The notes beneath the pieces were generated by a model that did not search any database, was not told the DNA's origin, and saw only the letters and a list, made by a program, of their open reading frames with translations. Shown one piece after another: positions 601 to 17,485 of a stretch of DNA of 30,339 nucleotides. Source of the DNA: Hymenobacteraceae bacterium (GTDB lineage Bacteria; Bacteroidota; Bacteroidia; Cytophagales; Hymenobacteraceae); assembly GCA_031425525.1 (NCBI GenBank), contig JANPJM010000087.1, positions 1 through 30,339 of the forward strand. Reading direction: 5' to 3'. Made by a program: the position numbers and the translations under genes. Position 1 is the first letter of the stretch. Each line of letters begins with the position of its first letter.

Positions 601-820
601 GCCGACGCCGCGCGCCTGGGCCAAAAACTTCCCCCATCTCGTCGGCTACTACGCCACCGCTCACACTGCCCAACAGGGCGGTAAACGCTGGCGCTACCTG
701 CTGCGGGTGTATTTCATTGGATATTCGACGCCGAGTGGGAAGCCCGGCACGGGCGGTTCCGGCGCGCGATGTACGTATCAGGGTATCACCTAGAGCAGTT
801 TTGGAGTCGGTGTACGGGTT

Positions 821-887
821 GGAGCGCGGGTCTCCGGCCCACCTCCTGTGGCTGCGCACTTGTGGGCGGGCCGGAGACCCGCGCTCC
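821..887. repeat. perfect 20-bp GC-rich inverted repeat (821-840 pairs with 868-887, 27-nt loop), a very stable hairpin/cruciform
   Basis: ggagcgcgggtctccggccc at 821-840 is the exact reverse complement of gggccggagacccgcgctcc at 868-887. Confidence 0.85.
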
Positions 888-1022
888 AACCAGCTGCCGC
901 ACGTCCATAGACGCCGAATCTGCTCTAAATCGACACCCGCCTGTCAATGGTCAATGGCTGCGCTGCGCTCGTACCGATAAAACCAACCGCCTGACCCCGC
1001 TTAGCGGCCCGCTTCATCCGCT

Positions 1023-1925
1023 TCAGGCATCGCCCGGCGTAATGATTCCGTCCTGACCGCTTTTGGTTTTCATATTTACCAGAATGCGGTGAAGAGTTTC
1101 GGCGGCCAGTCCGTGCAGCACCAGGCGGTACGCCGCGCTGTAAGTTGTTTCGGGCACCATCGGGTGCTTGTTGTTCACTAAACCCAGGTGGGCCGGCGTG
1201 TTCAGGATCTGGGCGGTGTAGATCCCGATGGTTTCATCGAGCTGGAGCGAGTTGGAGGCCCGGAGAAAGTCGTTCGACGTCAGAAAAAACTGGTAACAGG
1301 GCGTGAACAATTCGATGGCCGAGCGCAGGTCGAGCATATTAGTCCACTTATTCGGAAATTCGATGTGGTGGAATTGATCCGGGGTAATCATCGTGAGGTC
1401 GGGCCGGGGCTTGCCGCGAATCACGATATTCTTCTCGCGCAGTTGGCCGTTGAGGCGGATGACGAAATTGTAGAGGTTCAGGTCGTGCCGTAAAAACAGA
1501 TCGTCTTTGATATCCGCAAAATCGTAGGGCTTCAGCGGCGTGGTTGTTACTTCCACCCCTTCGACGTTTTTGGCGATAAATTCCATAATCTCGCTGCCCA
1601 CGTGAAAATGGCGGAAAATGAGCAGGTTGGCGTCCGGGCTGACAAAGTGCTTCAAGCCCCACGCCAGGAGGCGGTGCAGCAGCCGCGAAGAATTGACCAG
1701 GTTCGGGAAAAAGAACTTGAAGATGTGAATCAACAGCATACTCGCCTTCGACCAGATCCGGATCAACGGCAGCAGGTACCGGGCCGTGCGCGAATTGTTG
1801 TCGCGCATCAAGCTGAGCTTGGTTCGGTCGTTGATCGGAATGCTGCTGTCGAGGTACATCGCCAGCCAGGGGTTCGGGTCGCGGTCGTCGTGGGAGGCAA
1901 TGTCTAGCTCGGGATCGTTATTCAT
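1023..1925 (-). CDS. hypothetical protein (300 aa), last gene of the hydroxylase-KAS operon; function not recognisable from sequence
   Basis: Clean 300-codon ORF with ATG at 1925, 41 bp downstream of the KAS-fusion stop on the same strand. GC is lower (about 55%) than neighbours. No motif I can assign confidently. Confidence 0.6.
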   Translation of the reverse strand: MNNDPELDIASHDDRDPNPWLAMYLDSSIPINDRTKLSLMRDNNSRTARYLLPLIRIWSKASMLLIHIFKFFFPNLVNSSRLLHRLLAWGLKHFVSPDANLLIFRHFHVGSEIMEFIAKNVEGVEVTTTPLKPYDFADIKDDLFLRHDLNLYNFVIRLNGQLREKNIVIRGKPRPDLTMITPDQFHHIEFPNKWTNMLDLRSAIELFTPCYQFFLTSNDFLRASNSLQLDETIGIYTAQILNTPAHLGLVNNKHPMVPETTYSAAYRLVLHGLAAETLHRILVNMKTKSGQDGIITPGDA

Positions 1926-1966
1926 GGGTTAATGAAGTTAGAGGACAGAAGTTACGCAGTCTCCTT

Positions 1967-3844
1967 CTAATAATTCCCCAGTTCCTCCAGTTGCATTCGG
2001 TAGAGGCGGGCGGTGGTTTTGGCGGTTTTCACGATCCGTCGGGCTATTTCGAGGTTCATTTTCGGGTGATTGAGCGCCTGCTCCAGGTTCCGGAAATGGT
2101 TTTCGTCGGCTAACCCGTGATAGGTAAAAAAAGACACCTGATCGTCGGTCAGCCCGAGCTGCTGCTGCATCAGCGCGCCCCAGCCGGCCGCCAGGCGCTT
2201 GCCGATGCCCTCGATGATGAACATCGCGCCGAGCAGGTCGATAGGGTTCGGCTGGCTGGCCTGCTGGAACACAAAGGCGCTCAACGCCAGGCTGCCGATG
2301 TTCTTTTCGCCGCGCCGGATGATTTCCGGATCCTCGCCAAGGTTCTCGAAATTGCGCTCCAGGAGTTGGTAATCGCGGTGTTCGGCCGCAGTGTGCCGGA
2401 TGAAGGCCGAGCGCAGCTCGAACAGCTCGATGTCGATGTTCGACGCGGCGCGGGCAATCCACTGCGAGCCATCGATTACCTGCTGGCGCAGGTCGGTGAG
2501 GAGCAGCCGGTAATCGGCTCGACTGAGCTGGCCGTCGTGGATTTTTTGCACGATCGGCACTTTATACAGCCCGGTTTCAAATGCCACCCACACCTGCGTG
2601 AGCTGCCGGACCAGCCACTCCGAGGTTTCGGTTTTTTCGAGGTTCAGCTCCGGGGCCACAATCGGCGGCAGGGCTACTTGCTGCGGGGCCGGGCCGCGGT
2701 CGGCGCCCGCAGCGCCCGCAGCGCCCACTACCCGCAGCTGCATAAAGGCCGTCACGAAACGGCCGCTTTCGGGCACCATACACAGGATGCGCTGGCCGGA
2801 CGTTAACCGGCCGGAATACAGCAGCTCTTCGAGCATGATAAAGAGCGACGCCGAACCGGTATTCCCTTTTGAACTCAGGTTGCTGAACCACTTTTCCGGC
2901 GCGATTTCGGCGCCTCCTTGCTTCATCAGCGCGCGGGTAGGCTCCTTGAAGTATTCCGACGAATAGTGGCAGCAGAGCCAATCGACGGCAGCGACGCTGA
3001 TCTTACCCCGATCAATCAACTCGAAAAAATGGGCGACGCCGGTTTTCACCACGTCGTCGAGCAGACGGATATCCTGCTTGAGGTTGATGGCGCCGGCCCG
3101 CGCCGCCGATTCAAAATCCGGATAGTCGAGCCAGGTAGGTTCGTGGGGGTCTTTATTGCTGTTTTGGCCGGCGTACATACACACCGGAAAGGTGGGCGCG
3201 TGCGAGCGCACCTCGACCCACTCGATGGCGAGCGATAGGCCGCCGGGCGCGGGCTGGTCTTGCACCACGAGGGCCCCGGCGCCGTCGGACAGCATCCAGC
3301 GCAGAAACTCCGTCGCGAACGGCAGCGAAGTCAGCTGCTGCGCCTCGAAACGGGAGGCTTTGAACATTCGGCTCGCAAACTCGCTGCCCACGCACACGGC
3401 GTTGCGCACGTCGCCGCACCGAATCAGGGCGGCGGCATGCTGGAGGGCCATCAGGCTGCTGGCGCACACACTCTGGAAGCTGGCCAACGCGCAGCTCGAA
3501 AAATCAAGCTCGCCGTGTACCATACTGGCAAAGCCGGGCACAGGCAGGTCGGCTTGGGTGGTGCCGGCGCAGAGCAGCTCCACGTCGCGCCCGGTCAGGG
3601 TGCTGCGTTCCAGCGCGCGCTCGATGGCCCGGGCAGCCATCGCGGCATTGGAATACTGGCTGTTCTGCTGCCGGTCGAGGGCGTAGTAACGGGTTTTAAT
3701 CCCGTTTTGCTGGAGAATCCGATCCCGGGCGGCGCTTTTTTTTCCATGCACCTGGCCCAGGTACTCCTCCATTTCGTGGTTAGCCACCGGCGGGCCCGGC
3801 AGAAAAATACCGGCGGCGGTGATGTAGGCCTGCTTCATTTTCAT
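1967..3844 (-). CDS. 3-oxoacyl-ACP synthase III (KAS III/FabH-like thiolase-fold condensing enzyme) fused to a C-terminal heme-oxygenase-like (iron-containing redox enzyme/HDO-type) domain; 625 aa
   Basis: Starts MKMKQAYITAAGIFLPG. Condensing-enzyme motifs are present: active-site Cys in DFSSCALASF, and the GNTGSASLFIMLEELL Asn motif. An Ala/Gly-rich linker is followed by a domain with E..H and YHGLADENHF (H-x3-D-x2-H) motifs typical of heme-oxygenase-like diiron enzymes. The ORF runs continuously to 1967 with no internal start. The ATG at 3842-3844 overlaps the upstream gene stop (ATGA). Confidence 0.7.
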   Translation of the reverse strand: MKMKQAYITAAGIFLPGPPVANHEMEEYLGQVHGKKSAARDRILQQNGIKTRYYALDRQQNSQYSNAAMAARAIERALERSTLTGRDVELLCAGTTQADLPVPGFASMVHGELDFSSCALASFQSVCASSLMALQHAAALIRCGDVRNAVCVGSEFASRMFKASRFEAQQLTSLPFATEFLRWMLSDGAGALVVQDQPAPGGLSLAIEWVEVRSHAPTFPVCMYAGQNSNKDPHEPTWLDYPDFESAARAGAINLKQDIRLLDDVVKTGVAHFFELIDRGKISVAAVDWLCCHYSSEYFKEPTRALMKQGGAEIAPEKWFSNLSSKGNTGSASLFIMLEELLYSGRLTSGQRILCMVPESGRFVTAFMQLRVVGAAGAAGADRGPAPQQVALPPIVAPELNLEKTETSEWLVRQLTQVWVAFETGLYKVPIVQKIHDGQLSRADYRLLLTDLRQQVIDGSQWIARAASNIDIELFELRSAFIRHTAAEHRDYQLLERNFENLGEDPEIIRRGEKNIGSLALSAFVFQQASQPNPIDLLGAMFIIEGIGKRLAAGWGALMQQQLGLTDDQVSFFTYHGLADENHFRNLEQALNHPKMNLEIARRIVKTAKTTARLYRMQLEELGNY

Positions 3845-4572
3845 TTCTTTGTTGGCTGCCGCCAGCCTTCGAGCCGGTCGAGCAGGTCGGTGGCGAAGCC
3901 GTAGCCTCCCCGGTTCAGGTGATGATGACTGCCGTGGCGGGTGGCCAGCAGCGACCAGGGGCGGCCCCGGCCGTCGCCGAACCGGTAATTGCAGTGGCCC
4001 GCGAAATTGAGCAGGATGCTGGCCAGCGGATACAGCAAGATGGCGGTGGCCGAGAAATCGACCCACGGCGCGATGGTCAGCGGCACGGTGCTGAGTAGCA
4101 GCGCCTCGAACCAATGGAAACTGTAAACCGAAAACACCGTGGGCACCTTGGAACGGTGATGCACGTAGTGCACCCGCCGATACAGGAAAGGCAGGTGCAG
4201 CAAGCGGTGCACCCCGAAAAAATGCACCTCGTTCCAGAGCGTGAGCAGCGCCAGCCCCACTACAGTGTTGGCCAGGGTGTCGGGCCGCAGCACCACCACC
4301 CCTTGGCGCACCAGGTACACCATGGCCACGCCCGAGAAGCCAAACAGGAGCATAGAAACCACCGAGTTCCGAATCTCGAACGGCACCTGCCGGCCCGGCG
4401 GCGGCGGCGGCCGGATCTGGTGTACCAGGCCCCACTTCGCCAATTGCCGGCACCCGCCCAGGAAAAGCGGCCCAAGCCCGAAATACAGCACCGCAAAATA
4501 CGCCACGGTGAGCCCGTACACCTGCTGGTACGTGCTGTCGTGCAACATCCAATGGAGCAGTTTGGGGAGCAT
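3841..4572 (-). CDS. fatty acid hydroxylase superfamily integral membrane enzyme (sterol desaturase/CrtZ-like, His-box diiron)
   Basis: 243 aa with several hydrophobic segments and histidine boxes HRLLH, HYVHH, HGSHHH. Its stop TGA (3841-3843) overlaps the KAS III start codon. Confidence 0.75.
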   Translation of the reverse strand: MLPKLLHWMLHDSTYQQVYGLTVAYFAVLYFGLGPLFLGGCRQLAKWGLVHQIRPPPPPGRQVPFEIRNSVVSMLLFGFSGVAMVYLVRQGVVVLRPDTLANTVVGLALLTLWNEVHFFGVHRLLHLPFLYRRVHYVHHRSKVPTVFSVYSFHWFEALLLSTVPLTIAPWVDFSATAILLYPLASILLNFAGHCNYRFGDGRGRPWSLLATRHGSHHHLNRGGYGFATDLLDRLEGWRQPTKK

Positions 4573-4702
4573 AGGGCGGTAGATAAGTAGTCAGCCATAA
4601 GCTTTTAGCTGTAAGCCGCAAGCCAGACCATTGACTGGCAAAAAGTTACGGGGCTCGCGTTAGCAATTTACTTGTGGCGCCGTACTTAAAGGTACTACCC
4701 GG

Positions 4703-4770
4703 CCCGCAAACCCCGAAAGGGCTTTATTCCACCGCCTGGGGTTGCTACGCCAACGGCGTTGCTACCCCAG
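4703..4770. repeat. copy 2 of the intergenic repeat; core CCTGGG-GTTGCTAC-GCC-AAC-GGC-GTTGCTAC-CCCAGG (4725-4761)
   Basis: Aligns with 527-600. The inner stem has changed CCC/GGG to GCC/GGC with pairing preserved (compensatory change). Lies in the 221-bp spacer between the regulator stop (4794) and the hydroxylase start (4572). Confidence 0.7.
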
Positions 4771-4793
4771 GCGGGCGCCGGGCGCCCCCCACC

Positions 4794-5570
4794 CTATTTC
4801 AACAGCTCCCCCACCAACGCCTCCAGCCGCGCTACGCGCGCATCGAGCAAGGCGGGCGGCGCGGGCGGGGCCGTCAGCACGGCGTGAATTTGCCAGAGTT
4901 CCAGCACTTCCTTGGGCGGCACTTCGCGCGGGGGGTAATCGGGGTTATCGGCGGTGAGCGATAAGGTGAGATCGGTTTTGACCCCTGCCAGGCGGCGGAT
5001 GAGCGGGCCGGTGCGAACTACCACCGCGTACAACTGGCCGGGGATCGGGGGGGCGGCGCCCGCCGTTAGCCCGGCGCGCGCCGCCACTACCACATCGTGC
5101 GGCCGTAAGCCGCCGCCGGGGTGGGTCATCTCGGAGGTGCCCACCTCGAAGGCGCGCGTCACGGGGCCGAGCGCCAGCGGTAGGATCAGGTGCGGCAGCG
5201 TGGCGACCCACGCGGGATCCTGGCAGCGCATACCGTACGCAAGCTGCTGCGGCAGACCGACGTAGGGCGTCAGATGCGCAAGTTCGTCGGGTGGGGCGGT
5301 GGGCTCGGTGAGGTGCGCCGCGTGCCGCTGGTGCTGGTACACGTCGAAGTGCAGCAGGTCGTTGACGGTCAGCTCCTTGGTGAGCAGCAGGTCGACGGAA
5401 ACGCCGAAGTACTGCGCAATCTGAATCAGTGTGTCGGTTTTGGGCTCGGCCCGCCCCTCTTCCCAGGCCCCGACGCTGGGCCGCGCCAACCCGAACAGCT
5501 CGGCGAAGGCCGCCTGGGAAAGCTTCTTGACGGTGCGAATCTTCCGGATGTTGGCGCCGATACAGGACAT
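4794..5570 (-). CDS. XRE-family HTH transcriptional regulator with a C-terminal LexA/S24-peptidase-like domain
   Basis: N-terminus MSCIGANIRKIRTVKKLSQAAFAELFGLARPSVGAWEEGRAEPKTDTLIQIAQYFGVSVDLL is a classical XRE HTH. The C-terminal part has GTSEM (compare LexA GDSM) and LIRRL where LexA has VKRL. The ATG at 5570 is preferred over the TTG at 5591 used by the ORF track. Confidence 0.7.
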   Translation of the reverse strand: MSCIGANIRKIRTVKKLSQAAFAELFGLARPSVGAWEEGRAEPKTDTLIQIAQYFGVSVDLLLTKELTVNDLLHFDVYQHQRHAAHLTEPTAPPDELAHLTPYVGLPQQLAYGMRCQDPAWVATLPHLILPLALGPVTRAFEVGTSEMTHPGGGLRPHDVVVAARAGLTAGAAPPIPGQLYAVVVRTGPLIRRLAGVKTDLTLSLTADNPDYPPREVPPKEVLELWQIHAVLTAPPAPPALLDARVARLEALVGELLK

Positions 5571-5762
5571 AGGCAAATCTTTTTGGCTCAAACGATGAGC
5601 ATTTTCAAAACTTATTCGTACTATTGTGCCGTAAATCTACGACCAAAAGCTTCAAAACCGCAAGCAAGTTGCTGCATTTTTGAGCAATGCCTGCTTTTAT
5701 GCAGCCCAACTGCCCCCGTCGCCTACCTTAGCCCGCCCTTCCGTACTTACCCGCTCAGCCCG

Positions 5763-6173
5763 ATGCCTAACCCGTACTTCGACAAAATTCGGCAGTACCT
5801 CCACGAGTTGGGCGGTACCGTGGCAGTGGCAGACCCCGCCACCGGCGTTTTTGTGGTCAGCAAGCCCGAATTGGGCATTTACCAGCTCGTGATCGGGTGT
5901 GCCGACCCGCTGCTCATTCTGGAGCAGCACCTGCTCATCCTGCCCGAGCCGACCCTGCGGATTTACCAGCGGCTGCTGCAAAAAAACCGCGACATCATTC
6001 ACGGCGCGTTCGTGCTCGACGATACCGGCCGCCGCGTCATCTTCCGCGATACGCTCCAGATCGGTACTCTCGACCGCGACGAGCTGGAGGCGTGTTTCAA
6101 CTCGCTCGGGCTGCTGCTGAGCGAGTTTGCCACCGAACTGATTGCCTTTTCCAAGCCCACTTTCACTTCCTAA
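5763..6173 (+). CDS. small cytoplasmic protein, YbjN/DUF2170 (YjfI)-like putative sensory-transduction regulator; first gene of the PspA operon
   Basis: 136 aa, starts MPNPYFDKIRQYLHELGG. Sits 16 bp upstream of pspA in the same orientation. E. coli yjfI (DUF2170) precedes the PspA paralog yjfJ in the same way. The family assignment is by gene order and general appearance, not by a verified motif. Confidence 0.35.
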   Translation: MPNPYFDKIRQYLHELGGTVAVADPATGVFVVSKPELGIYQLVIGCADPLLILEQHLLILPEPTLRIYQRLLQKNRDIIHGAFVLDDTGRRVIFRDTLQIGTLDRDELEACFNSLGLLLSEFATELIAFSKPTFTS

Positions 6174-6189
6174 GCCTGACCCCAATCCG

Positions 6190-6906
6190 ATGAGTATTTT
6201 TTCCCGCCTTTTCAAAATCGGGCAGGCCGAAGCGCATTCGGCCGTCGATAAGCTCGAAGACCCCATCAAACTCACCGAACAAGGGCTGCGCGATTTGCGC
6301 ACCGAGTTCGACAAGGCGCTGCATGCCCTCGCCGATGTGAAGGCGATGGTGATCCGGGCGCGCACCGACGGCGAGCAGGCCCGCCAACGCGCCGCCGACT
6401 ACGAAGACAAGGCCATCCACCTGCTCCAGCGGGCGCAGCGCGGCGAGCTGGCCGCCCCCGAAGCCGACCGCCTCGCCGGCGAAGCCCTCCTCAAGAAGGC
6501 CGAACACGACGCCCACGCCACCCGCGCGGCAGCCGATCAGGAACGGTTCGCGCAGTCGGCGAACCAGCTCGATCAGAACGTGCAGCAACTCAAGGGCACG
6601 ATGGAAAAGTGGGAAAACGAGCTAAAAACCCTTAAAGCGCGCGTGCGCGTCAGCACCGCCACCCGCACGATCAACGAGCAGCTCGCGCGCCTCGATTCGA
6701 CGGGCACCATCGCGCTGCTCGAACGGATGAAGGAGCGCGTCGCGCACGACGAGGCGCTGGCGGAGTCGTACGGCGAGCTGGCGCAACGGCACCGCAACGT
6801 TGACGCCGAAATCGACCGCGCCCTGACCCAGGCGCCCGCCGACCGTGCCCAGCACGCGCTCGACGCGCTCAAAGCGCGGCTGGCGCTGCCGCCGGCCAGC
6901 GAGTAA
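6190..6906 (+). CDS. pspA: PspA/IM30 (phage shock protein A/Vipp1, ESCRT-III-like) family protein
   Basis: 238 aa, starts MSIFSRLFKIGQAEAHSAVDKLEDPIKLTEQGLRDLRTEFDKAL..., the canonical PspA N-terminus. The rest is long helices with coiled-coil character and an Ala/Arg/Glu-rich composition. Confidence 0.85.
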   Translation: MSIFSRLFKIGQAEAHSAVDKLEDPIKLTEQGLRDLRTEFDKALHALADVKAMVIRARTDGEQARQRAADYEDKAIHLLQRAQRGELAAPEADRLAGEALLKKAEHDAHATRAAADQERFAQSANQLDQNVQQLKGTMEKWENELKTLKARVRVSTATRTINEQLARLDSTGTIALLERMKERVAHDEALAESYGELAQRHRNVDAEIDRALTQAPADRAQHALDALKARLALPPASE

Positions 6907-6944
6907 CTTGACACTGTACCTGTAGGTAATAGCCAGCGTTCTGT

Positions 6945-7364
6945 ATGGGCTCTTTCAACGTATTGCTTCAATTCGCGCACCATCAGCATTCCGAAAATGA
7001 AGAACACTGGTGTACGACTCCCGAGGAAGTAACGGCGCTGTTCGATGCGTTTGACTGGGCCGGTGAAACCGATAAATCCAACCGGCTCGAACGCGTCTCG
7101 CCGACCCTCAGCGTCGAAACCCGTCAGCCGGCGGCATTGCTGTGGGTGTCATCCATCGGCGACGCGCCCAATCTGGAATTCATCTCCGAGTATACGTTTC
7201 CGGCCGATACTACCCGACTCTTTGGCTTGTGGTCGGGCTCCGGTCGCAAAACCCTGCACACCAGCTCGTTCACTTTATTTCAGGCGCGAGAAGCGGTTGC
7301 GCTGTTCACGCGCCAGGCACAAGCGGAATTACTCGCCCTCTATCATTCAGCCGGCACCCGATGA
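6945..7364 (+). CDS. hypothetical soluble acidic protein (139 aa) between pspA and the YqiJ-like gene
   Basis: ORF with ATG at 6945. Its stop TGA (7362-7364) overlaps the ATG (7361-7363) of the next gene. No recognisable motif. Confidence 0.5.
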   Translation: MGSFNVLLQFAHHQHSENEEHWCTTPEEVTALFDAFDWAGETDKSNRLERVSPTLSVETRQPAALLWVSSIGDAPNLEFISEYTFPADTTRLFGLWSGSGRKTLHTSSFTLFQAREAVALFTRQAQAELLALYHSAGTR

Positions 7365-8017
7365 CCGAACTGCTTCAAGCGGCCGTTGCGCCGCCCAACC
7401 TGCTGCCGACGGCGCTGCTGGTCTTCGTGGTGCTGTACTGGCTGTCGGTGATGATCGGGCTGGTGGGGTCGGATGCGCTCGACCTGCACCACGACTTTGC
7501 GCACGATGTGGGGCACGACGTGGGCCACGACCACCCCGGAACGCACGGCGGCCTCGGCACCGACTGGCTCAACAACGCGCTGGCGTTCTTCAATCTGGGA
7601 CGGGTACCGCTGATGTTCTGGTTGTCGTTCGTGGCGCTGCCGCTCTGGGTGGGCAGTATTCTGGTGAACTACGAACTGGGCAATACGTCGGGGCTGGTTG
7701 GGCTGGCGCTGCTGCTGCCGCTGCTGCTGGTGAGCCTGTTCGTGGCCAAAATCCTGACGCTGCCGTTCGTCAAGCTGTTTGCGGCGATGGAAAAAGACCA
7801 CGGCGCCGGCGCGCAGCCCATCGGCAAGGTGTGTACCGTGGTGTTGCCCGCCACCCACGCGCTGCTCGGCCAGGCCAGTATTCGCCTCCCCGACGGCGCG
7901 CCGCTCACGCTCAACGTGAAAGCACTCTCGCCGACCGCTACCTTTCGCAAAGGCGACCAAGCGCTCGTGATCGATTTCGACGCCCAGCGCCGGTGCTATC
8001 TGATTGAGCCCTATTGA
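7361..8017 (+). CDS. YqiJ/DUF1449-like inner-membrane protein with a C-terminal NfeD-type OB-fold (flotillin partner)
   Basis: 218 aa with an N-terminal TM helix, a His/Asp-rich segment DLHHDFAHDVGHDVGHDHPGTHGG, further TM helices, and a C-terminal beta-rich GKVCTVVLPATHALLGQASIRLPDGAPLTLNVKALSPTATFRKGDQALVIDFD resembling the NfeD OB-fold. It is immediately upstream of a flotillin gene, as in E. coli yqiJ-yqiK. Confidence 0.7.
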   Translation: MTELLQAAVAPPNLLPTALLVFVVLYWLSVMIGLVGSDALDLHHDFAHDVGHDVGHDHPGTHGGLGTDWLNNALAFFNLGRVPLMFWLSFVALPLWVGSILVNYELGNTSGLVGLALLLPLLLVSLFVAKILTLPFVKLFAAMEKDHGAGAQPIGKVCTVVLPATHALLGQASIRLPDGAPLTLNVKALSPTATFRKGDQALVIDFDAQRRCYLIEPY

Positions 8018-8019
8018 TC

Positions 8020-8051
8020 GCTGATGTAGCTGATTGTCTGATTCCGCTGAT
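8020..8051 (+). promoter_or_regulatory. four tandem (G)CTGAT motifs at 9-bp spacing (8020, 8029, 8037, 8046), with additional TGAT motifs at 8001 and 8015
   Basis: Read directly: gCTGATgtaGCTGATtgtCTGATtccGCTGATttg. Lies in the 140-bp spacer before the flotillin gene. Confidence 0.4.
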
Positions 8052-8102
8052 TTGTTGAGTTGCCACATCGAACCCTACTAAACCGTCTGCTTCCTGCGCT
8101 GC

Positions 8103-8132
8103 GGGCGGGCACAAGGCCCGCCCCTACTTTTT
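8103..8132 (+). promoter_or_regulatory. GC hairpin (GGGCGGGC-acaag-GCCCGCCC) followed by CTACTTTTT; either an internal intrinsic terminator/attenuator or a Bacteroidota -7 promoter box (TAnnTTTG-like) for the flotillin gene
   Basis: 8-bp perfect stem followed by a T-run, 26 bp upstream of the flotillin ATG at 8158. The same hairpin+TACTTTTT arrangement recurs at 10333-10362. Confidence 0.45.
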
Positions 8133-8157
8133 CGGTTATCTTCCCCAATTCCCTCCA

Positions 8158-10332
8158 ATGATTGCCCAACTTTCGTGGGCGGCGCTGATCATCATCGGCC
8201 TGCTGCTCCTCGGTTTTCTTTCGATTCTGGTGCGCATGTACCAGAAAGCCGTGCAGGGCGAAGCCCTGGTGCGCACCGGCCTCGGCGACACGAAAGTGTC
8301 GTTTTCGGGGATGTTCGTCATTCCCATCATTCACCGGTTGGAGGTGATGGATATTACCCTCAAATCGATGGTGATTGCGCGTCACGGGGCCGAGGGGTTG
8401 GTGTGTAAAGACAACCTGCGGGCCGACGTGAAGGTCAATTTTTTCGTGCAGGTCAATAAAACGCCCGGCGATGTGATTCACGTCGCGCAGAGCATCGGCT
8501 GCCGGCGCGCTTCCGACCCGGCGGCGCTCGAAAACCTCTTCGACGCCAAGTTTTCCGAAGCGCTGAAAGCCGTCGGTAAACGGTTCGATTTTATCGAGCT
8601 GTATAATTCCCGCGAAGAATTCAAGCAGGAAATTTTGCGCGTCATCGGCACCGACCTCAACGGCTACGTCCTCGACGACTGCGCGATTGATTACCTGGAG
8701 CAAACGCCGTTGTCGGCGCTGAATGAAAATAATATTCTGGACGCCGAGGGCATCAAGAAAATCATTGCGCTGACGTCGGAACAGAAGATTCAGGCCAACC
8801 AGATCGAGCGCGACAAACAGCGCACGATTAAAAAACAGGACGTGGAAGCGCAGGAAACCATTTTGCAGCTCGAAAAGCAATTGGTGGAAAATCAGGAAAA
8901 GCAGAAGCGCGAAATTGCCAATATCAAAGCGCGCGAGGCGGCCGAAACCGAGAAAGTCATTCAGGAAGAACGGTTGAAGAGCGAGCGCGCCAAGATTCAG
9001 ACCGACGAAGAATTGCAGGTGGCCGGGCAAAACCGCGACCGGCAGATCATCGTGGCCGAGCGGAACAAGGAGCGCACCGACGCCATCGAAACCGAGCGGG
9101 TGGCCCAGGCCAAAGCGCTGGAAGCCAACGAGCGCGAGCGCATCGTGGCGCTGGCGCAGATCGAGAAGGAAAAAGCCCTCGAAGAAGAGCGCAAGAATAT
9201 TCAGGGCATCATCCGTGAGCGGATTACGGTGGAAAAAGCCACCGTGCAGGAGGAGGAGAAAATCAAGGATACCCGCGCCCAGGCCGGCGCCGAGCGCGAA
9301 AAAATGGTAGCGCTCACAGCCGCCCAGCAACTGAACCAGGCCGCAACCATCGCGCTGGTCGGGCAGGCCGAAATGGGCAAGCAAGCGGCCGAGTTCCGGG
9401 CGAAACAGGCGTTGATCGATGCCGAAGCCGAGCGCGGCACCGCCGAGCAGCACGCGCTGGCCGTGAAAGTGCTGGCGGAGGCAGAGGCGAGCAAAACGTC
9501 GGCCGTGGGGCTGGCCGAGGCCCAAGTGATGCAGGCCAAAGCGGGCGCGCGCCAGAAGGAAGGCGAAGCGGAAGCGCACGTCATGCAGCTTACGGCGACG
9601 GCCGAGGCGCAGGCGATTCAGGTGAAAGCGGTGGCGCAGGCCGAGGCCGACGAGAAGTTGGGGATGGTGGCGGCGAAAGTCAATCGCGAAAAAGGGCTCG
9701 CCGACGCCAGCATCATCGAAGCGCGCGCCGACGCCGACCAGAAGAAAGGTTTTGCCGAAGCCGCCGTGAGCGAGCAGAAATTTGCGGTGGAAGCCAAAGG
9801 CATCGAGGCGAAAGCCGACGCGATGAAGAAGCTCGACGGGGTGGGCAAAGACCACGAAGAGTTCAAGCTCCGGCTCGACAAGGAGAAGTCGGTGGAGCTG
9901 GCGCAGATCAGCATCCAGAAGGATATCGCTGCCGCGCAGAGCGCCGTTATCGGCGAGGCCCTCAAGGCGGCGAAAATCGACATCGTGGGCGGCGAAACGA
10001 TGTTCTTCGACCAGATCATCGGCTCGATCACGAAGGGTAAGATGATCGACCGGGCGGTGCAGAACAGCGAGGTGCTGGGCACGGTGAAGGACGCGTTTTT
10101 CGGCCCCGGCGCGGGCGGCGACGGCGACTTCAAAACCAATATGCGGCGGTTCGTCGAGCAGTTCGGCCTTAAGTCCGACGACATCAAGAACCTGAGCATT
10201 TCGGCCCTGATGCTGCAAATGATGCAAACCACCGACTCCGACAGCACGCGTTCCGCGCTCCGCCAACTGCTCGACACGGCCACCACGCTGGGGCTCGCCG
10301 ACAAGCCCGTGCGGACGATTGATTTGACGTAA
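8158..10332 (+). CDS. flotillin-family protein (SPFH/band-7 domain, YqiK-like) with a very long coiled-coil region; 724 aa
   Basis: N-terminal TM MIAQLSWAALIIIGLLLLGFLSILV, then an SPFH-like domain (VRTGLGDTKVSFSGMFVIPIIHRLEVMDITLKSMVI...), then hundreds of residues of E/K/A/Q-rich heptad-like repeats typical of flotillins. Confidence 0.85.
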   Translation: MIAQLSWAALIIIGLLLLGFLSILVRMYQKAVQGEALVRTGLGDTKVSFSGMFVIPIIHRLEVMDITLKSMVIARHGAEGLVCKDNLRADVKVNFFVQVNKTPGDVIHVAQSIGCRRASDPAALENLFDAKFSEALKAVGKRFDFIELYNSREEFKQEILRVIGTDLNGYVLDDCAIDYLEQTPLSALNENNILDAEGIKKIIALTSEQKIQANQIERDKQRTIKKQDVEAQETILQLEKQLVENQEKQKREIANIKAREAAETEKVIQEERLKSERAKIQTDEELQVAGQNRDRQIIVAERNKERTDAIETERVAQAKALEANERERIVALAQIEKEKALEEERKNIQGIIRERITVEKATVQEEEKIKDTRAQAGAEREKMVALTAAQQLNQAATIALVGQAEMGKQAAEFRAKQALIDAEAERGTAEQHALAVKVLAEAEASKTSAVGLAEAQVMQAKAGARQKEGEAEAHVMQLTATAEAQAIQVKAVAQAEADEKLGMVAAKVNREKGLADASIIEARADADQKKGFAEAAVSEQKFAVEAKGIEAKADAMKKLDGVGKDHEEFKLRLDKEKSVELAQISIQKDIAAAQSAVIGEALKAAKIDIVGGETMFFDQIIGSITKGKMIDRAVQNSEVLGTVKDAFFGPGAGGDGDFKTNMRRFVEQFGLKSDDIKNLSISALMLQMMQTTDSDSTRSALRQLLDTATTLGLADKPVRTIDLT

Positions 10333-10362
10333 GCGCGGACATTCTGTCCGCGCTACTTTTTC
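10333..10362 (+). terminator. hairpin GCGCGGACA-ttc-TGTCCGCGC followed by TACTTTTTT; intrinsic terminator/attenuator between the flotillin and giant ATPase genes (alternatively a -7 promoter box)
   Basis: Perfect 9-bp stem with a 3-nt loop and a T-tract, starting directly after the flotillin stop (10330-10332). The motif ends 6 bp before the ATG at 10368. Confidence 0.5.
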
Positions 10363-10367
10363 TCCGA

Positions 10368-13300
10368 ATGGAAACCCCTCCTCCCCCGCAGCTCGAAGGC
10401 GGCACGTACGAAATTCTGCGCGCCCGCCTGACCAAGAGCGGCGCCGACCTGCGCGCGCGCCTCACGGCCCTCAATGCCGAGCGTAAGCAGGTATTCGGGG
10501 CCGTCGATACGCGCCTGATCGGCACGGGCCGGATCACCACCGAACACCATTGCGTGCCCTGGAATATGGTGCCGGTGGGCGGGCGGTTTCTGTTCGGTTT
10601 CAACGTGGTACTGGGGCTGAAAACGGAGGTTGAGCTGAGCGACGTATTCGGTATCTACGACTACACCGACCACGATTTCCGCCCCCAGCCGCTCGATGCG
10701 TTGCGCGACCCCCGGTTCGAGGAGGAGTTTCGGAACCTCTACCGCTTCTACCGGCAGACCCAGTTTTCGGCCTTTGCCGTGCGCGGGCCGCACCTGTTCA
10801 TGGTGTTCCGGGTGGGCAAGAGCGCCACGGATGTCAAGACGTTCAAGTGGCTGATCGGCGCCGACGACCGCCTGACCTACCTCGACAACCGCTCCGACCA
10901 CGAGTACACCTTTCCGCCGGCGCAGGAATTCAGCTGGAAGCGCGCCACCCGCGATATGCAGCGCGGCGGGCGCCACCCGCACGTCTCGATTGAAGACCGC
11001 TGCTTCGTGGAAACCGTCGGCGGCGACCTCACGATCAAAGTCGAAGACAATACCGAAATCGGCCAGGGCATCCTCTCCGAGCCGGTCGAGCAGAAAGATC
11101 AGTCGCTCGATGACGCCGAGATTCACTACGCCGTAGTCGGGCATTTGGTGCTGCTCAAGATTCGGCCGTATCAGGAAGCCGCATTTCGCCATTTTTTGTA
11201 CAACGGCAAGACCCGGCAAGCGCGCCGCCTCGATGCGCTGGCCGACGCCGTGCAGTTGCTGCCCGACGGTCAGGGGTTGATTTTCCCCGGCGGCGTGGCC
11301 TTGCAGAACGGCGAAGGCAAACAGTTTGAGAACGCCCCCGCCGACACGGTTTTCGAGCGGCGCGTGGCCTCGCCCAACGGCGAAGACTACCTGTACTGCT
11401 TCTATCAGCGCACCAGCGGGCAGTATTGGCTGCTGAGCTACAACCGCATCGAGCAGCGCGTGGAGGCGCCGATTGCCTGCCACGGCTTCGCCCTCTTCGA
11501 CAACGGCGAGCTGTGCTTTTTCCGCGCCGAAGAAGAGCCGCGCAAGCACCACGCCGTGCAAATCTGGCAGACGCCCTACACCGCGCCCGACTACGAGTTA
11601 CCCGTCACGCGCGACTCGTACCTCTACAAACTCGGCAACAAGGAGATCGTGCGGGCGCTCGCCGAAGGGCAGGAAGTGCTGACCCTTACGGCCAAGGAAG
11701 ACAGCTACGCCGGCCTGTACCTCGACCTCGGCCGCCTCACCACCACCCTGCTCGACGCCTACCACTGGCTCACCGAACCCGCCGCCCAGACGCTGGCCGA
11801 GCCGTTGCGCGAGATTCGGCAGACGGCGCTGGCCGCCGTCGAGGAGTTCGATAAGGTGCAGCGGATCCGCAGCGCCACGGCCGCCGAAACCACCCTCGTG
11901 CTGACCCGCGCCACCGACCTGAGCGCCCGCCTGAAGCGCGCCGCGCCCGACACCGTGGCCGCCTACGTGCAGGCGCTGGCCGAGCTGCGGGCCGCGCGCG
12001 GCGAGGTGGTGGGCCTACGCGAACTGCGCTACGCCGACCTGCCCGCCATCGAGCGGGCCGCCACCGAATTGGAACTGCTCACCCAGGTGACGGCGAACCA
12101 GACGGTCGAATTCCTGCTCCGGCCCGACGCCCTCGCGCCCTACGAGCAGCGCGTGACGGCCATTGCCGACGGCATCGAGGGGGTGCAGAAAACGGTGGAA
12201 GCCGATGCGCGGGAGCAGGAAATCGGGGCGGTGTCGGGCGAGTTGGAACTGCTGATCGATGTAGTGGGCGGGCTGCCCATCCCCGACCCCACCCAAACCA
12301 CCGCCATCATCGAGCGGCTGTCGGCGATCTACGCCCGCTTCAACCAGATCAGGGCCGCCCTCAAGCGGCGGCGGCAAAGTTTGGCGGGCACCGAAGCCCA
12401 GGCGCAGTTTGCCGCCCAGCTCCGGCTGCTCGATCAAACGCTCGTCAATTACCTCGATCTGAGCGATACACCCGCCAAGTGCGACGAGTACCAGACCCGT
12501 CTGCTGGTGCAGCTCGAAGAAATCGAGGGGCGTTTTCCGGAGTTCGAAGGATTTTTGGAGCGCCTCACCGAGAAGCGCGAAGCCGTCCTCGAAGCGTTCG
12601 AGACGCGCAAGGCGGCCCTGGTGGCGGCCCGCAATCAGCGCGCAACGGCCCTGCTGCAAGCCGCCGAGCGCCTACTGACCGCCGTGCGCAGCCGGGTAGC
12701 GCGCCTGACCACCGCCGCCGAGCTGAACGGCTACTTTGCCGCCGATGTGCTGGTGGCGAAGGTGCGGCAGACGGCCGCCGAGCTGCTCGCCCTCGGCGAC
12801 CCGGTGAAGGCCGACGACGTGCAGGGGCGCCTCAAAACCCTGCGCGACGAGAGTCTGCGCCAACTCAAAGACCGCACGGAACTGTACACCGATGGCGGGC
12901 AGGTGATCCGGTTCGGGCCGCACGCCTTCACCGTAAACCAGCAACCGCTGGAACTCACGACGGTCTTGCGCGACGAGGTACTGCACTTTCACCTCACGGG
13001 CACCAACTTTTTTCAGCCCATCGCCGACCCCGCCATCGAGGCTGCCCGCGACCTGTGGGATCAGCCGCTACCGTCGGAAAACGCCCACGTGTACCGCGCC
13101 GAGTGGCTGGCGTGGCAGTTGCTGGAAGCAGCGGCCCACCCCGTCCCCGCCGACCCCGAACGCGGCACGCCGGCCGTGCTGTCGCTCCCGGAACTGGCGC
13201 ACCTCACGCCCCCCGAACTGCTGGCCTACGTGCAGACCGCGATGGCCCCGCGCTACCCCGAAGGCTACCTCAAGGGTGTCCACGACCACGACGGCGCCCT

Positions 13301-15293
13301 ACTCCTCGAAGCCCTCGTGCGCCTGGCCCGCACCGCCGACCTGCTGCGCTACCCCGCCGAGGCCCGCGCCGCCGCCGCGCTGTGGTGGGCGCAATTTGCG
13401 CCGCCCGAGCGCCGCGCGGCCTGGGAACTGCGGTTGCGCGGCCTCGGGCAGTTGCAGCGGGTGTTCCCCGGCGCCGATGCCAGTGCGGCGCTACGCGCCG
13501 AAATCGGGGCCGAGCTGGCGGCCTTCCTCACGCAAACCCAGCTTTTCGACCCGGCCGCCGTGGAAGAAGCGGCCGATTACCTTGTCACGGAGCGCGCGCG
13601 CGGCACCGCGTTCATCATCGCCGCCGAAGCCGCCGAACTGAGCCGCCTGTTCTGGCAGACCGTGCGCGAGCGCCAGGCCGATGCCGTCTTCGATGAGTCG
13701 ATGGCGGAGTTGGCCGCGCAACCCGCCGCCCGCTTTGCGCTGGCGCGCGAGTGGCTCGGCGCCTTTCTCGCCCAGCAACCCGCCGACGCACCGGCCGGCG
13801 CCCTGCGCCCGTGGCTGAGCGAGGCGGCATTGTTGCTCGTCACCGATTCCTTTGACGCCGCGCACGTCGTGAGCGTGCCCACGCGCCTCACGCTCGACGG
13901 TTTGCAGGGTACGCACCCGCGCATCCACGAACGCCGTTACGAGCTGGATTTTCCGGAGTTCCGCCACCGGCTGCGGCATTTCGGGCGCGTTACGGCGCCC
14001 CGGTTTGCCCACTTCACGGCCCTCAAAAAGGAGCGGCTTGCGCACGCCGCCGAGGCGCTGCGGCTCGCCGATTTTCAGCCGCGCGTGCTGTCGTCGTTCG
14101 TGCGCAACCGCCTGCTCGACCAGGTGTACCTGCCGCTGATCGGGGCTAACCTCGCCAAACAGATCGGCACGGCCGGCACCGACAAGCGCACCGACCTGAT
14201 GGGCCTACTGCTGCTCATCTCGCCGCCGGGCTACGGCAAAACCACGCTCATCGAGTACGTGGCGGCGCGCCTGGGGCTGGTGTTCGTGAAGGTCAGCGGC
14301 CCGGCGCTGGGGCATCACGTTACGGCTGTAGACCCCGAACAGGCGCCCAACGCCGGGGCCCGCGACGAGCTGCGGAAGCTGAACCTGGCGTTCGAGATGG
14401 GCGACAACGTGCTGATTTACCTCGATGACATCCAGCACTGCAACCCCGAGTTTCTGCAAAAATTCATCTCCCTCTGCGACGCCCAGCGCCGCATCGAGGG
14501 CGTGTGGGAGGGCCGCCCGCGCACCTACGATTTTCGGGGCCGCAAAGTGGCCGTCGTGATGGCCGGCAACCCCTACACCGAATCGGGCGACGTGTTTCGG
14601 CTGCCCGATATGCTCGCCAACCGCGCCGACATCTACAACCTCGGCGACATCATCGGCACGTCCGCCGACGCCTTCCGGCTTTCTTACCTCGAAAACAGCC
14701 TCACGGCGAACCCCGTTTTGCGGCGCCTCGCCACCCGTAGTCCCGCCGACTTTTACCCGATTCTGCGCCTCGCCGAAAGCGCCGATCAGGGGGGCGCCGC
14801 CGAGCCGCTCGACCTCGAAGCGAATCACTCGCCGGAAGAAATAGCGGAGTACGTGGCCGTGTTGCGCCACCTGCTGATCCTGCGCGACGCCGTGGTGCAG
14901 GTCAATGAGGCGTATATCGCGTCGGCGGCTCAGGCCCAGGATTACCGCACCGAGCCGCCCTTCCGGCTGCAAGGCTCCTACCGCAACATGGCCAAGCTCG
15001 CCGAGAAGGTGCAGCCCCTGCTCAACGCCGCCGAGCTGCAAGGGCTCCTCGCCGACCACTACGAAAGCGAGGCCCAGACCCTTACCACCGCCGCCGAAGC
15101 CAACCTGCTCAAGCTCCGCGAGCTACTCGGTTGGCAAACCCCCGCCGACACCGCGCGCTGGGCCGAAATCAAGGCGACGTTTCAGCACAATCTGCGCCTG
15201 AGCAGCGGCGGCCAAAACGCCCAGATGCTCGAGCAGCTCACGAGCATTGCCGGGGGGCTGGCGGGGATTCGGGAGGTGTTGGGGCGGGGGTAG
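10368..15293 (+). CDS. giant (1641 aa) multidomain protein: unknown N-terminal domain, about 800 aa helical/coiled-coil middle, C-terminal MoxR/dynein-type AAA+ (AAA_5-like) ATPase module
   Basis: Uninterrupted 4926-bp ORF. Walker A LLLLISPPGYGKTTLIEY (about 14228-14245), Walker B NVLIYLDDIQH (about 14409-14440), and sensor-1/Arg-finger region VAVVMAGNPYTESGDVFRLPDMLANRADIY. The middle is Ala/Leu/Glu/Arg-rich helical sequence. The antisense strand also has long open frames, as expected for this composition. Confidence 0.8.
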   Translation: METPPPPQLEGGTYEILRARLTKSGADLRARLTALNAERKQVFGAVDTRLIGTGRITTEHHCVPWNMVPVGGRFLFGFNVVLGLKTEVELSDVFGIYDYTDHDFRPQPLDALRDPRFEEEFRNLYRFYRQTQFSAFAVRGPHLFMVFRVGKSATDVKTFKWLIGADDRLTYLDNRSDHEYTFPPAQEFSWKRATRDMQRGGRHPHVSIEDRCFVETVGGDLTIKVEDNTEIGQGILSEPVEQKDQSLDDAEIHYAVVGHLVLLKIRPYQEAAFRHFLYNGKTRQARRLDALADAVQLLPDGQGLIFPGGVALQNGEGKQFENAPADTVFERRVASPNGEDYLYCFYQRTSGQYWLLSYNRIEQRVEAPIACHGFALFDNGELCFFRAEEEPRKHHAVQIWQTPYTAPDYELPVTRDSYLYKLGNKEIVRALAEGQEVLTLTAKEDSYAGLYLDLGRLTTTLLDAYHWLTEPAAQTLAEPLREIRQTALAAVEEFDKVQRIRSATAAETTLVLTRATDLSARLKRAAPDTVAAYVQALAELRAARGEVVGLRELRYADLPAIERAATELELLTQVTANQTVEFLLRPDALAPYEQRVTAIADGIEGVQKTVEADAREQEIGAVSGELELLIDVVGGLPIPDPTQTTAIIERLSAIYARFNQIRAALKRRRQSLAGTEAQAQFAAQLRLLDQTLVNYLDLSDTPAKCDEYQTRLLVQLEEIEGRFPEFEGFLERLTEKREAVLEAFETRKAALVAARNQRATALLQAAERLLTAVRSRVARLTTAAELNGYFAADVLVAKVRQTAAELLALGDPVKADDVQGRLKTLRDESLRQLKDRTELYTDGGQVIRFGPHAFTVNQQPLELTTVLRDEVLHFHLTGTNFFQPIADPAIEAARDLWDQPLPSENAHVYRAEWLAWQLLEAAAHPVPADPERGTPAVLSLPELAHLTPPELLAYVQTAMAPRYPEGYLKGVHDHDGALLLEALVRLARTADLLRYPAEARAAAALWWAQFAPPERRAAWELRLRGLGQLQRVFPGADASAALRAEIGAELAAFLTQTQLFDPAAVEEAADYLVTERARGTAFIIAAEAAELSRLFWQTVRERQADAVFDESMAELAAQPAARFALAREWLGAFLAQQPADAPAGALRPWLSEAALLLVTDSFDAAHVVSVPTRLTLDGLQGTHPRIHERRYELDFPEFRHRLRHFGRVTAPRFAHFTALKKERLAHAAEALRLADFQPRVLSSFVRNRLLDQVYLPLIGANLAKQIGTAGTDKRTDLMGLLLLISPPGYGKTTLIEYVAARLGLVFVKVSGPALGHHVTAVDPEQAPNAGARDELRKLNLAFEMGDNVLIYLDDIQHCNPEFLQKFISLCDAQRRIEGVWEGRPRTYDFRGRKVAVVMAGNPYTESGDVFRLPDMLANRADIYNLGDIIGTSADAFRLSYLENSLTANPVLRRLATRSPADFYPILRLAESADQGGAAEPLDLEANHSPEEIAEYVAVLRHLLILRDAVVQVNEAYIASAAQAQDYRTEPPFRLQGSYRNMAKLAEKVQPLLNAAELQGLLADHYESEAQTLTTAAEANLLKLRELLGWQTPADTARWAEIKATFQHNLRLSSGGQNAQMLEQLTSIAGGLAGIREVLGRG

Positions 15294-17070: not shown

Positions 17071-17478
17071 GTGGAAACCATCTTCGAACTGCTGATACCG
17101 CGCCGGCCCAAGTCGCTGCAAGCCAAGAACGCCAAGTTGCAGCAGTGGAAAAGCTACGTGCGCGACTTGGCCCGTACCGAATGGAACGGCCCACCGCACG
17201 TAGCGCCGGCTTTCCGGGTAACGCTGGTGTATTTATGCGATGTGGACGCGGCCGACATCGACAACATCATCAAGCCGATTCAGGATGCGCTGGTGGGCGT
17301 GGTGATGCCCGACGATAATTTGGTAAGCGATGTTGACAGTCACGGCCGGCTACTGGATCAGGCGTTCGACCTGACCGATTTGCCTGCCTTGCTCGTTCAA
17401 GGCGCCCAGGCGCAACGGGAATGCGTTTACGTGCGCGTCTTGGCGGGTGCGGTTTTACCTCTCACGCACTTTCTTTAA
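17071..17478 (+). CDS. rusA: RusA-family crossover junction endodeoxyribonuclease (Holliday junction resolvase)
   Basis: 135 aa from a GTG start: ...LIPRRPKSLQAKNAKLQQWKSYVRDLA...CDVDAADIDNIIKPIQDALVGVVMPDDNLV. This matches the RusA LPWPPSNN...DLDNLxKxxxDAL...DDxQV motif arrangement. Confidence 0.7.
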   Translation: METIFELLIPRRPKSLQAKNAKLQQWKSYVRDLARTEWNGPPHVAPAFRVTLVYLCDVDAADIDNIIKPIQDALVGVVMPDDNLVSDVDSHGRLLDQAFDLTDLPALLVQGAQAQRECVYVRVLAGAVLPLTHFL

Positions 17479-17485
17479 TACTACA

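Follow-up and report, generated by a model that had tools for sequence, protein, structure and literature searches.

A ketosynthase fused to a heme-oxygenase-like oxidase and a DUF6999 protein form a conserved, uncharacterised cassette in Bacteroidota

The DNA analysed here is a stretch of 30,339 nucleotides from a Hymenobacteraceae bacterium (contig JANPJM010000087.1, positions 1-30,339, assembly GCA_031425525.1), the whole of which is referred to as the window. Close to its left end three open reading frames (ORFs) follow one another on the minus strand, and all three were confirmed where the original prediction, made from the sequence alone, had placed them. The region is an operon, the core of which is a conserved three-protein biosynthetic cassette consisting of a ketosynthase (KS), a heme-oxygenase-like dimetal oxidase (HDO) and a protein of the family DUF6999. 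In the window the KS and the HDO are fused into one protein, and the operon opens with the gene of a FA_hydroxylase-family oxygenase (FAH). The features of the operon are the following.

3841..4572, minus strand: FA_hydroxylase-superfamily gene, 243 aa, integral-membrane His-box oxygenase (PF04116, E 2e-20)
3841..3844, minus strand: ATGA overlap between the FA_hydroxylase stop and the KS-HDO start, read directly from the sequence
1967..3844, minus strand: KS-HDO fusion gene, 625 aa, with ACP_syn_III and ACP_syn_III_C in the N-terminal part and PF14518 in the C-terminal part
2720..3844, minus strand: KS domain, residues 1-375 (NF005293 match; StlD structure 5gk0 in the PDB)
2615..2719, minus strand: interdomain linker, residues 376-410, Ala/Gly/Pro-rich, unconserved, GC 0.72
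1967..2614, minus strand: HDO domain, residues 411-625 and the stop codon (PF14518; AlphaFold2; Foldseek)
1023..1925, minus strand: DUF6999 gene, 300 aa, all-alpha non-membrane protein (PF22523)

The overlap of stop and start codon at 3841-3844 reads AAAGAAATGAAAATG. The translational coupling that had been read from it is real, and the overlap recurs in orthologous loci; in the fetched locus L001, for example, the FA_hydroxylase frame ends at 8004 and the KS frame starts at 8001. A spacer of 41 bp (1926-1966) separates the KS-HDO gene from the DUF6999 gene, which has a GC content of 0.551 compared with 0.60-0.635 in the neighbouring genes. Both the gap and the lower GC had been described correctly. 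Because GC at third codon positions is 0.77 in the DUF6999 gene, the dip is due to amino-acid composition and not to foreign origin. Pfam and Foldseek also bore out the domain calls, a His-box membrane oxygenase and a beta-ketoacyl-acyl carrier protein (ACP) synthase III fused to an HDO. We regard the domain identities of the cassette proteins as virtually certain, and it is very probable that the cassette is a functional unit.

Homologues of the fusion were searched for among 5.8 billion proteins. The best 120 matches are all 593-634 aa long and 65-92% identical, nearly all carry a precomputed PF14518 match, and they come from sources including Marivirga, Catalinimonas, Fulvivirga, Belliella, Echinicola, Cellulophaga, Maribacter, Flavivirga, Saprospiraceae and Chryseolinea. 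The fusion, initially taken for an unusual architecture, is therefore a common one in these bacteria. Across Bacteroidota classes it is 65-70% identical. The cassette is present in thousands of aerobic Bacteroidota, and additionally in marine Gammaproteobacteria in which the fusion is split into two genes.

For comparison of gene order 15 genome loci were fetched; the Bacteroidota-type set numbers 17 when the window and a cut contig (L015) are counted. Identity of the fusion to the window protein is about 52% in Pedobacter and Mucilaginibacter, 49% in a metagenome-assembled genome (MAG) labelled Chthonomonadales and 69% in Candidatus Kapaibacterium. All-vs-all clustering of the ORFs of these loci returned exactly three conserved families, FAH, KS-HDO and DUF6999, and no further neighbour gene was conserved across the fetched loci. 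The DUF6999 gene follows the KS-HDO gene in every full-length locus (16 of 16).

The split form came to light when plasmids were searched by tblastn with the KS domain as query and a Pseudoalteromonas megaplasmid locus matched at 49% identity. The operon in that locus lies at 5433-8610 of L019, and its KS and HDO genes overlap. The genes there are annotated, in order, as beta-ketoacyl-ACP synthase III, 'iron-containing redox enzyme family protein' and hypothetical protein, the last of which is a DUF6999 member (E 3e-96). In Simiduia and Halomonas nitroreducens overlapping genes encode a membrane protein of about 190 aa, the KS, the HDO and DUF6999, while a Methylococcales MAG has the split operon without the first membrane-protein gene. 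The gammaproteobacterial DUF6999 clade also takes in Vibrio rumoiensis, Rheinheimera, Salinispirillum, Arsukibacterium, Endozoicomonas and Marinibactrum. Divergent DUF6999 members, at 24-26% identity, still stand behind a KS and HDO pair or a KS-HDO fusion, and one metagenome contig also has adjacent, overlapping KS and HDO genes with DUF6999 next to them. The KS and HDO genes of the Methylococcales MAG overlap as well. Another divergent member (P0299) lies on a contig of 1.2 kb, too short to hold neighbours. KS, HDO and DUF6999 are as such a near-constant core. Since the KS and the HDO are fused in Bacteroidota and encoded by adjacent genes in Gammaproteobacteria, a Rosetta-stone argument can be made that they catalyse linked steps.

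A decayed copy of the cassette is present in a cyanobacterium. On plasmid pNFSY08 of Nostoc flagelliforme (locus L018, 6001-8713) a Bacteroidota-type KS-HDO gene is broken into three frames and DUF6999 is truncated to residues 12-156; a cytochrome P450 gene adjoins this copy.

The KS domain matches the StlD/DarB family model NF005293 over its full length (E 4e-120) with 401.4 bits, below the curated cut-off of 450, and the DarB model NF053539 with 359.1 bits, below the cut-off of 550. The split Pseudoalteromonas KS, with 372 bits on NF005293, is likewise under the cut-off, and the true DarB of a Burkholderia darABC plasmid locus scores 599.8 bits on the same model. Of the solved structures, that of StlD is closest (5gk0; E 2e-75, residues 5-373), compared with E 1e-15 or weaker for FabH, PqsD and OleA-type structures. 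Residues C127, H293 and N328 align with the catalytic Cys-His-Asn triad of StlD, H293 with the His replaced in the StlD mutant structure 5gk2, and the triad is kept in 16 orthologues. Judged by this triad, the KS appears to be a catalytically intact relative of DarB and StlD.

In a neighbour-joining tree the HDO-linked KS sequences all group together, whether fused or split, and DarB and StlD fall outside their clade; HDO-linked KS sequences are 43-51% identical between the two phyla and 35-42% identical to DarB/StlD. DarA-like, ACP and aryl-polyene/polyene genes (TAL, 4CL, KS/CLF, ACP, dehydratases) were absent from the 30-kb window, and no DarA, ACP or aryl-polyene gene was found as a conserved neighbour in the 16 other loci. 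By its sequence, the KS belongs to a sister subfamily of DarB/StlD, distinct from the flexirubin/dialkylresorcinol enzyme itself. The fusion is not the common DarB/flexirubin-type enzyme, an identity that the original prediction had named as its own possible undoing: it falls short of both thresholds (401 versus 450 and 359 versus 550 bits), has no DarA nearby and belongs to a separate clade.

The likeness of the KS to StlD and DarB (5gk0, E 2e-75) makes dialkyl-cyclohexanedione/resorcinol-type chemistry likelier than alkenes or headgroup modification. As such, of the products first suggested for the operon (alkenes, hydroxy-acids, alkylresorcinols, modified headgroups), the resorcinol type is favoured, alkenes and headgroup modification less so. 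The wider proposal of an uncharacterised lipid-type pathway is supported.

In the C-terminal part of the fusion PF14518 (Haem_oxygenas_2) matches residues 493-615 with 35.5 bits against a gathering score of 28.9. The AlphaFold2 model of the HDO domain, made from 28 sequences, has a pLDDT of 89.6 and a seven-helix heme-oxygenase-like fold. When the model was compared with the PDB in Foldseek, the best matches were 3dde (TM 0.81) and CADD (8vag and 1rcw, TM 0.80 and 0.86), and after these came heme oxygenases, TenA proteins and UndA (4wwj); HmuO, TenA and UndA matched with a probability of 1.00. Identity to any solved HDO is only about 13-17%. In the PDB, 3dde alone gave a significant sequence match (profile search, E 2e-6); it is Sden_3740 of Shewanella denitrificans, a TenA/Thi-4-like protein without assigned function. 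The HDO domain of the window is about 17% identical to 3dde, whereas its true split orthologue, the 226-aa middle protein of the Pseudoalteromonas locus, is 39% identical to the window domain over 218 residues and retains the candidate ligands described below. CADD differs from the cassette enzyme in being a self-sacrificing p-aminobenzoate (pABA) synthase without a KS partner. BioE, the diiron oxygenase of the Bacteroidota biotin pathway, was considered as a relative and is unrelated, being ferritin-like with the ligands E/ExxH/E/ExxH.

The pattern that defines HDOs is three core helices which supply 3-His/3-carboxylate ligands (PMC13108848). In the cassette HDO the residues H484, E488, H489, D491, E496, E545, H576, D580 and H583 are invariant among 16 sequences of at least 49% identity. 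From these a candidate six-ligand 3-His/3-carboxylate set, H484, E488, E545, H576, D580 and H583, can be drawn up, located on three predicted helices. The spacing is 57 from E488 to E545 and 31 from E545 to H576, followed by HxxxDxxH; the ligands of MboA, for comparison, are E86, H89, E143, H172, D176 and H181. On this alignment the domain appears to carry a complete dimetal ligand set, and the six residues, whose absence would have counted against the original prediction, are present and invariant. Invariant positions make up 35% of the HDO and 23% of the KS, compared with 1 of 35 in the linker, which is also the point at which the gene is split in Gammaproteobacteria.

The third protein of the operon, which had been thought to lack recognisable motifs, matches PF22523 (DUF6999) end to end: residues 12-286 align to model positions 1-275 of 275 (E 3.1e-117, given as E 3e-117 where rounded), and 28 diverse relatives match PF22523 alone. 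Its predicted structure is all-alpha with 11 helices (pLDDT 74, pTM 0.75). None of its hydrophobic segments scores as membrane-spanning, Foldseek found no match of the model to solved structures (E at least 0.6), and a profile search of the PDB returned nothing. Seven residues, H106, P133, H147, D199, D230, H271 and E276, are invariant even in members as distant as 23% identity, and six of them are His, Asp or Glu; D148, R105 and N120 are kept in at least 90% and H279 in at least 80%. The His/Asp/Glu set, distributed over separate helices, suggests a putative metal site.

The family is small, with 371 clusters at 50% identity among 1.84 billion representatives. Identity of DUF6999 among the fetched loci is 47-80%, above that of KS-HDO, and the top database relatives are 74-82% identical. 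DUF6999 marks the system more specifically than any other component. Three identities for the protein were tried and rejected. It is not a hidden DarA (hhalign probability 0.5% against the flavodoxin-like, 318-aa DarA of the Burkholderia plasmid darABC) nor a second heme-oxygenase-like domain (hhalign probability 0.8%), and it bears no resemblance to the redox partner MboB, which is a flavin/Fe2S2 reductase. One DUF6999 member at 23% identity (L030, 8001-8927, GCA_020632765.1) has neither a KS nor an HDO gene within 8 kb; it adjoins aldo-keto reductase and beta-lactamase-family genes and is the only such solitary member found.

The FAH protein matches PF04116 with 74 bits against a gathering score of 31. 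In 12 orthologues 11 His residues are invariant (H117, H122, H126, H135, H138, H139, H153, H193, H213, H216, H217), among them the boxes HX4H (H117/H122), HX2HH (H135/H138/H139) and HX2HH (H213/H216/H217), and three hydrophobic segments are located at 20-41, 69-95 and 170-191. The FA_hydroxylase superfamily includes sterol desaturases/oxidases, CrtZ/CrtG, sphingolipid hydroxylases and the hydrocarbon-forming CER1. With this superfamily the protein shares the full tripartite His-box pattern and the membrane topology, but its gene is coupled to a KS-HDO gene, and it matches no NCBIfam equivalog.

Counting the window, 11 of the 17 Bacteroidota-type loci have an intact FAH gene immediately upstream of the KS gene. 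It is missing from L004, L012, L013 and the cut contig L015, and in Crocinitomix the sole homologue (35% identity) is located about 3.8 kb upstream. In Pedobacter psychroterrae (L009, 7712-8005) only a C-terminal fragment of 97 aa is left beside an intact KS-HDO and DUF6999, which fits a dispensable oxygenase. FAH is a frequent accessory and not part of the core.

Other membrane proteins occur in the cassette as well. Crocinitomix catalasitica (L008, 9848-10618) and a Saprospiraceae MAG (L006, 9861-10685) have an extra gene between KS-HDO and DUF6999; the Crocinitomix insertion encodes a FA_desaturase-family membrane protein (PF00487, E 6e-18), and the presence of such a gene in some cassettes fits a lipid substrate. 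Gammaproteobacterial cassettes open with a conserved His-rich integral membrane protein of about 190 aa (L019 5433-5990, L023 4649-5221, L024 4653-5222). It has no Pfam or NCBIfam match, and the idea that it is a divergent FA_hydroxylase was rejected (hhalign probability 0.1%). That membrane-bound lipid oxygenases have been recruited repeatedly speaks for a hydrophobic product.

The closest characterised systems are those of DarB and StlD, which join beta-ketoacyl and 2-enoyl thioesters head to head to give a carboxy-cyclohexanedione (carboxy-CHD) (PMC6836626). Carboxy-CHDs are the substrates of DarA, and aromatisation by DarA releases CO2; DarB-type enzymes use ordinary fatty-acid-synthase intermediates, and some dar-type clusters are without a dedicated ACP (PMC6836626). 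The cassette KS is homologous to StlD over its full length and has the same Cys-His-Asn triad. The cassette contains no ligase gene and, as in some dar-type clusters, no dedicated ACP gene, and it would draw on primary fatty-acid intermediates. It differs from DarAB(C)/StlCDE in that its KS is sub-cut-off and in a separate clade, has no DarA and instead always stands with an HDO, fused or as a separate gene, with DUF6999 after it. DarB homologues without DarA have been described in cyanobacteria, with products unknown (Nat Prod Rep 2019, PMC6836626). These are, like the cassette KS, DarB-like with no adjacent aromatase; however, the review mentions no HDO or DUF6999 partner for them (PMC6836626).

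UndA-type HDOs perform an O2-dependent oxidative decarboxylation that leaves a C=C bond (olefin), and HDOs also desaturate and cleave fatty-acid and amino-acid substrates (PMC13108848). The cassette HDO has the seven-helix heme-oxygenase-like fold and the 3-His/3-carboxylate set in common with UndA and other HDOs, and a fatty-acid-derived substrate is plausible for it. It differs from them in its low identity (about 13-17%), in a first His ligand at E-4 with an invariant Asp at E+3, and in being covalently fused to a KS.

From these comparisons a reaction sequence can be proposed. The KS would condense two acyl thioesters derived from fatty-acid synthase to a carboxy-CHD-type intermediate, and the tethered HDO would take this KS-made carboxy-CHD and oxidise it with O2. 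The most economical route would be an UndA-like step in which the H beta to the ring carboxylate is abstracted and CO2 expelled; the new double bond would then tautomerise to give a 2,5-dialkylresorcinol, so that the HDO would replace DarA via different chemistry. DUF6999 is probably either an enzyme that depends on a metal or an obligate HDO partner, and would act on the product or support the HDO; further tailoring of the lipid, such as hydroxylation of the ring or a chain, would fall to the membrane oxygenase. The pathway would end in a hydrophobic lipid or signal of the dialkyl-resorcinol, hydroxyquinol or cyclohexanedione type. That the KS condenses its substrates head to head is the better-founded part of this proposal, and we consider it somewhat favoured. 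We put forward the whole chain, from head-to-head condensation through the HDO as DarA replacement to a dialkylresorcinol-type lipid, only tentatively, at less than even odds. That the HDO acts as a decarboxylating aromatase, a role given to it by analogy with UndA, is possible but rather doubtful.

Several points weigh against this proposal. The KS is under both NCBIfam cut-offs and in a separate clade, and it may make no CHD at all; for the DarA-less cyanobacterial DarB homologues it has likewise been cautioned that they may not give carboxy-CHDs (PMC6836626). In the HDO the first-helix His is found at E-4 (H484, as also in 3dde) and not at the usual E+3 to E+10, and the E+3 position is occupied by an invariant Asp (D491); given these two residues, the metal site may be atypical. 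The closest structural neighbours of the HDO are 3dde and CADD, not UndA. Additionally, the role given to DUF6999 is a guess from conserved residues.

The alternative that survives best is a different condensation, either an OleA-like, non-cyclising Claisen reaction to a 2-alkyl-3-keto acid or the formation of a pyrone, after which the HDO would decarboxylate or desaturate the condensation product to long-chain enones, ketones or olefins and FA_hydroxylase and DUF6999 would tailor the product. This equals the hydrocarbon idea of the original prediction. The scores below the StlD/DarB cut-offs and the separate clade of the KS would agree with it, as would the hydrocarbon-forming, CER1-like enzymes of the FA_hydroxylase superfamily. 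UndA-type HDOs turn fatty acids into olefins (PMC13108848), and the published caution concerning DarA-less DarB homologues and carboxy-CHDs (PMC6836626) points the same way. However, the nearest characterised relatives of the KS are by far the cyclising StlD/DarB (E 2e-75 compared with E 1e-15 or weaker), and we consider a different condensation unlikely.

The HDO might instead act before the KS, desaturating, hydroxylating or fragmenting an acyl chain or other precursor to make an unusual KS substrate. HDOs are known to desaturate and cleave fatty-acid and amino-acid substrates, and a fusion implies that two steps are consecutive, not which of them comes first. Yet the KS precedes the HDO in every gene and domain arrangement, and the substrates of DarB-type enzymes are ordinary intermediates for which pre-oxidation is unneeded, so that this order of events seems improbable.

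A cofactor role has a much smaller chance. Here the heme-oxygenase-like domain would be CADD-like, that is self-sacrificing or cofactor-forming, or metal-free like TenA/PqqC, and the cassette would serve cofactor and not lipid metabolism. CADD and TenA-like proteins are indeed among the closest structural matches, and 65-80% identity across classes resembles that of a housekeeping function. Against it stand the domain's invariable association with an enzyme that condenses fatty acyl groups, the lipid oxygenases or desaturases of the membrane that often accompany it and the apparently complete dimetal ligand set, which speaks against a metal-free enzyme; the many Bacteroidota without the cassette and the decayed copy show that it is not essential. 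Least probable of all is an ordinary flexirubin/dialkylresorcinol DarB with a known product and an incidental C-terminal domain, which would fit the best family match (StlD/DarB), the label 'resorcinol' that antiSMASH-type tools would give and an orphan resorcinol cluster in the fusion-carrying Fulvivirga kasyanovii, but is contradicted by scores below both curated cut-offs, the distinct clade, the lack of DarA, ACP and aryl-polyene genes in the 30-kb window or the 16 other loci, an HDO domain more conserved than the KS domain, and the separation of the resorcinol and flexirubin clusters in F. kasyanovii.

In the library searched we found no paper that mentions DUF6999, and none that links a DarB-type KS with an HDO or states the product of the cassette. 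According to a 2026 review, more than 10,000 HDOs are predicted and about a dozen have been characterised, none of the latter KS-associated (PMC13108848). In a 2021 map of about 9,600 predicted HDO sequences fusion was raised only for cluster 11 (SznF), with a separate domain such as cupin. A study of Fulvivirga kasyanovii reported the orphan 'resorcinol' cluster, which has no close MIBiG homologue and is separate from the flexirubin cluster; F. kasyanovii carries the fusion, and the resorcinol cluster may be the same locus. Genome-mining tools probably already label these loci 'resorcinol' without matching a known cluster.

The cassette is real, widespread and uncharacterised, and we take its pathway for a variant of dialkylresorcinol-type head-to-head condensation with one component of unknown fold. 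Each new substrate class of HDOs has so far brought new oxidative chemistry, and here a large, sharply defined orphan HDO clade has its substrate strongly constrained by an attached KS of a well-understood type, which makes it unusually testable. Identification of the product would give a function to a Pfam DUF without structural relatives and account for the DarB homologues that lack DarA; it could also bring to light a membrane lipid or signal common among environmental Bacteroidota. It is possible, though less likely than not, that the cassette makes an undescribed lipid or signal class, with the HDO being the first to act on a KS-made cyclic beta-diketo acid, that is a DarA-independent aromatase, and DUF6999 a metalloenzyme of new fold.

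Two further features flank the operon.

4573..4793, minus strand: intergenic region 5' of the operon, presumed promoter location from its position relative to the first gene
817..891, no strand assigned: strong hairpin with 27-nt arms, 96% complementary, and a 21-nt loop

A consensus scan of 4573-4793, which does not model Bacteroidota promoters, found no sigma-70-type promoter-like site. The hairpin sits about 130 nt past the DUF6999 stop, in an apparently non-coding stretch of 1 kb at the left end, and may mark the end of the transcript or belong to a repeat. A 66-nt, internally palindromic element with the core GTTGCTACCCCAGGCGG is present in direct copies at 537-602 and 4718-4783, which are 83% identical and flank the operon; three arm matches were counted against 0.23 expected by chance, and the element looks like a REP/MITE-like intergenic repeat. 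The window contains no tRNA genes and no Rfam match, either to a riboswitch or to another RNA that would reveal a ligand.

The regulator noted upstream of the operon (4794-5591) had been called XRE/LexA-like. Its HTH_3 domain is present (E 1.9e-12), which agrees with an XRE-type protein, but the Peptidase_S24 match is sub-threshold (16.2 versus 23.3 bits). As a component of the system the regulator was rejected, since no other locus has it next to the cassette.

The remaining genes of the window have functions unrelated to the cassette and include those of a histidine kinase with a sigma-54 activator, a MacB-type efflux system and a protein sorted by the type IX secretion system (T9SS). The T9SS sorting domain and the closest homologues agree in placing the window in Bacteroidota. 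A run of plus-strand genes at 5742-15293 encodes CesT_Tir_1/YbjN-like and PspA/IM30 proteins, a 1641-aa ATPase with DUF3686, DUF7902 and AAA_5, and two proteins of 291 and 724 aa without a Pfam match. PADLOC gave nothing significant on this run, which may be an uncharacterised membrane-stress or defence-like module. At 17071-18142, also on the plus strand, RusA-like resolvase and AHJR-like restriction-endonuclease-fold genes follow the gene of a 449-aa protein without a Pfam match, and these may be the remnant of a mobile element.

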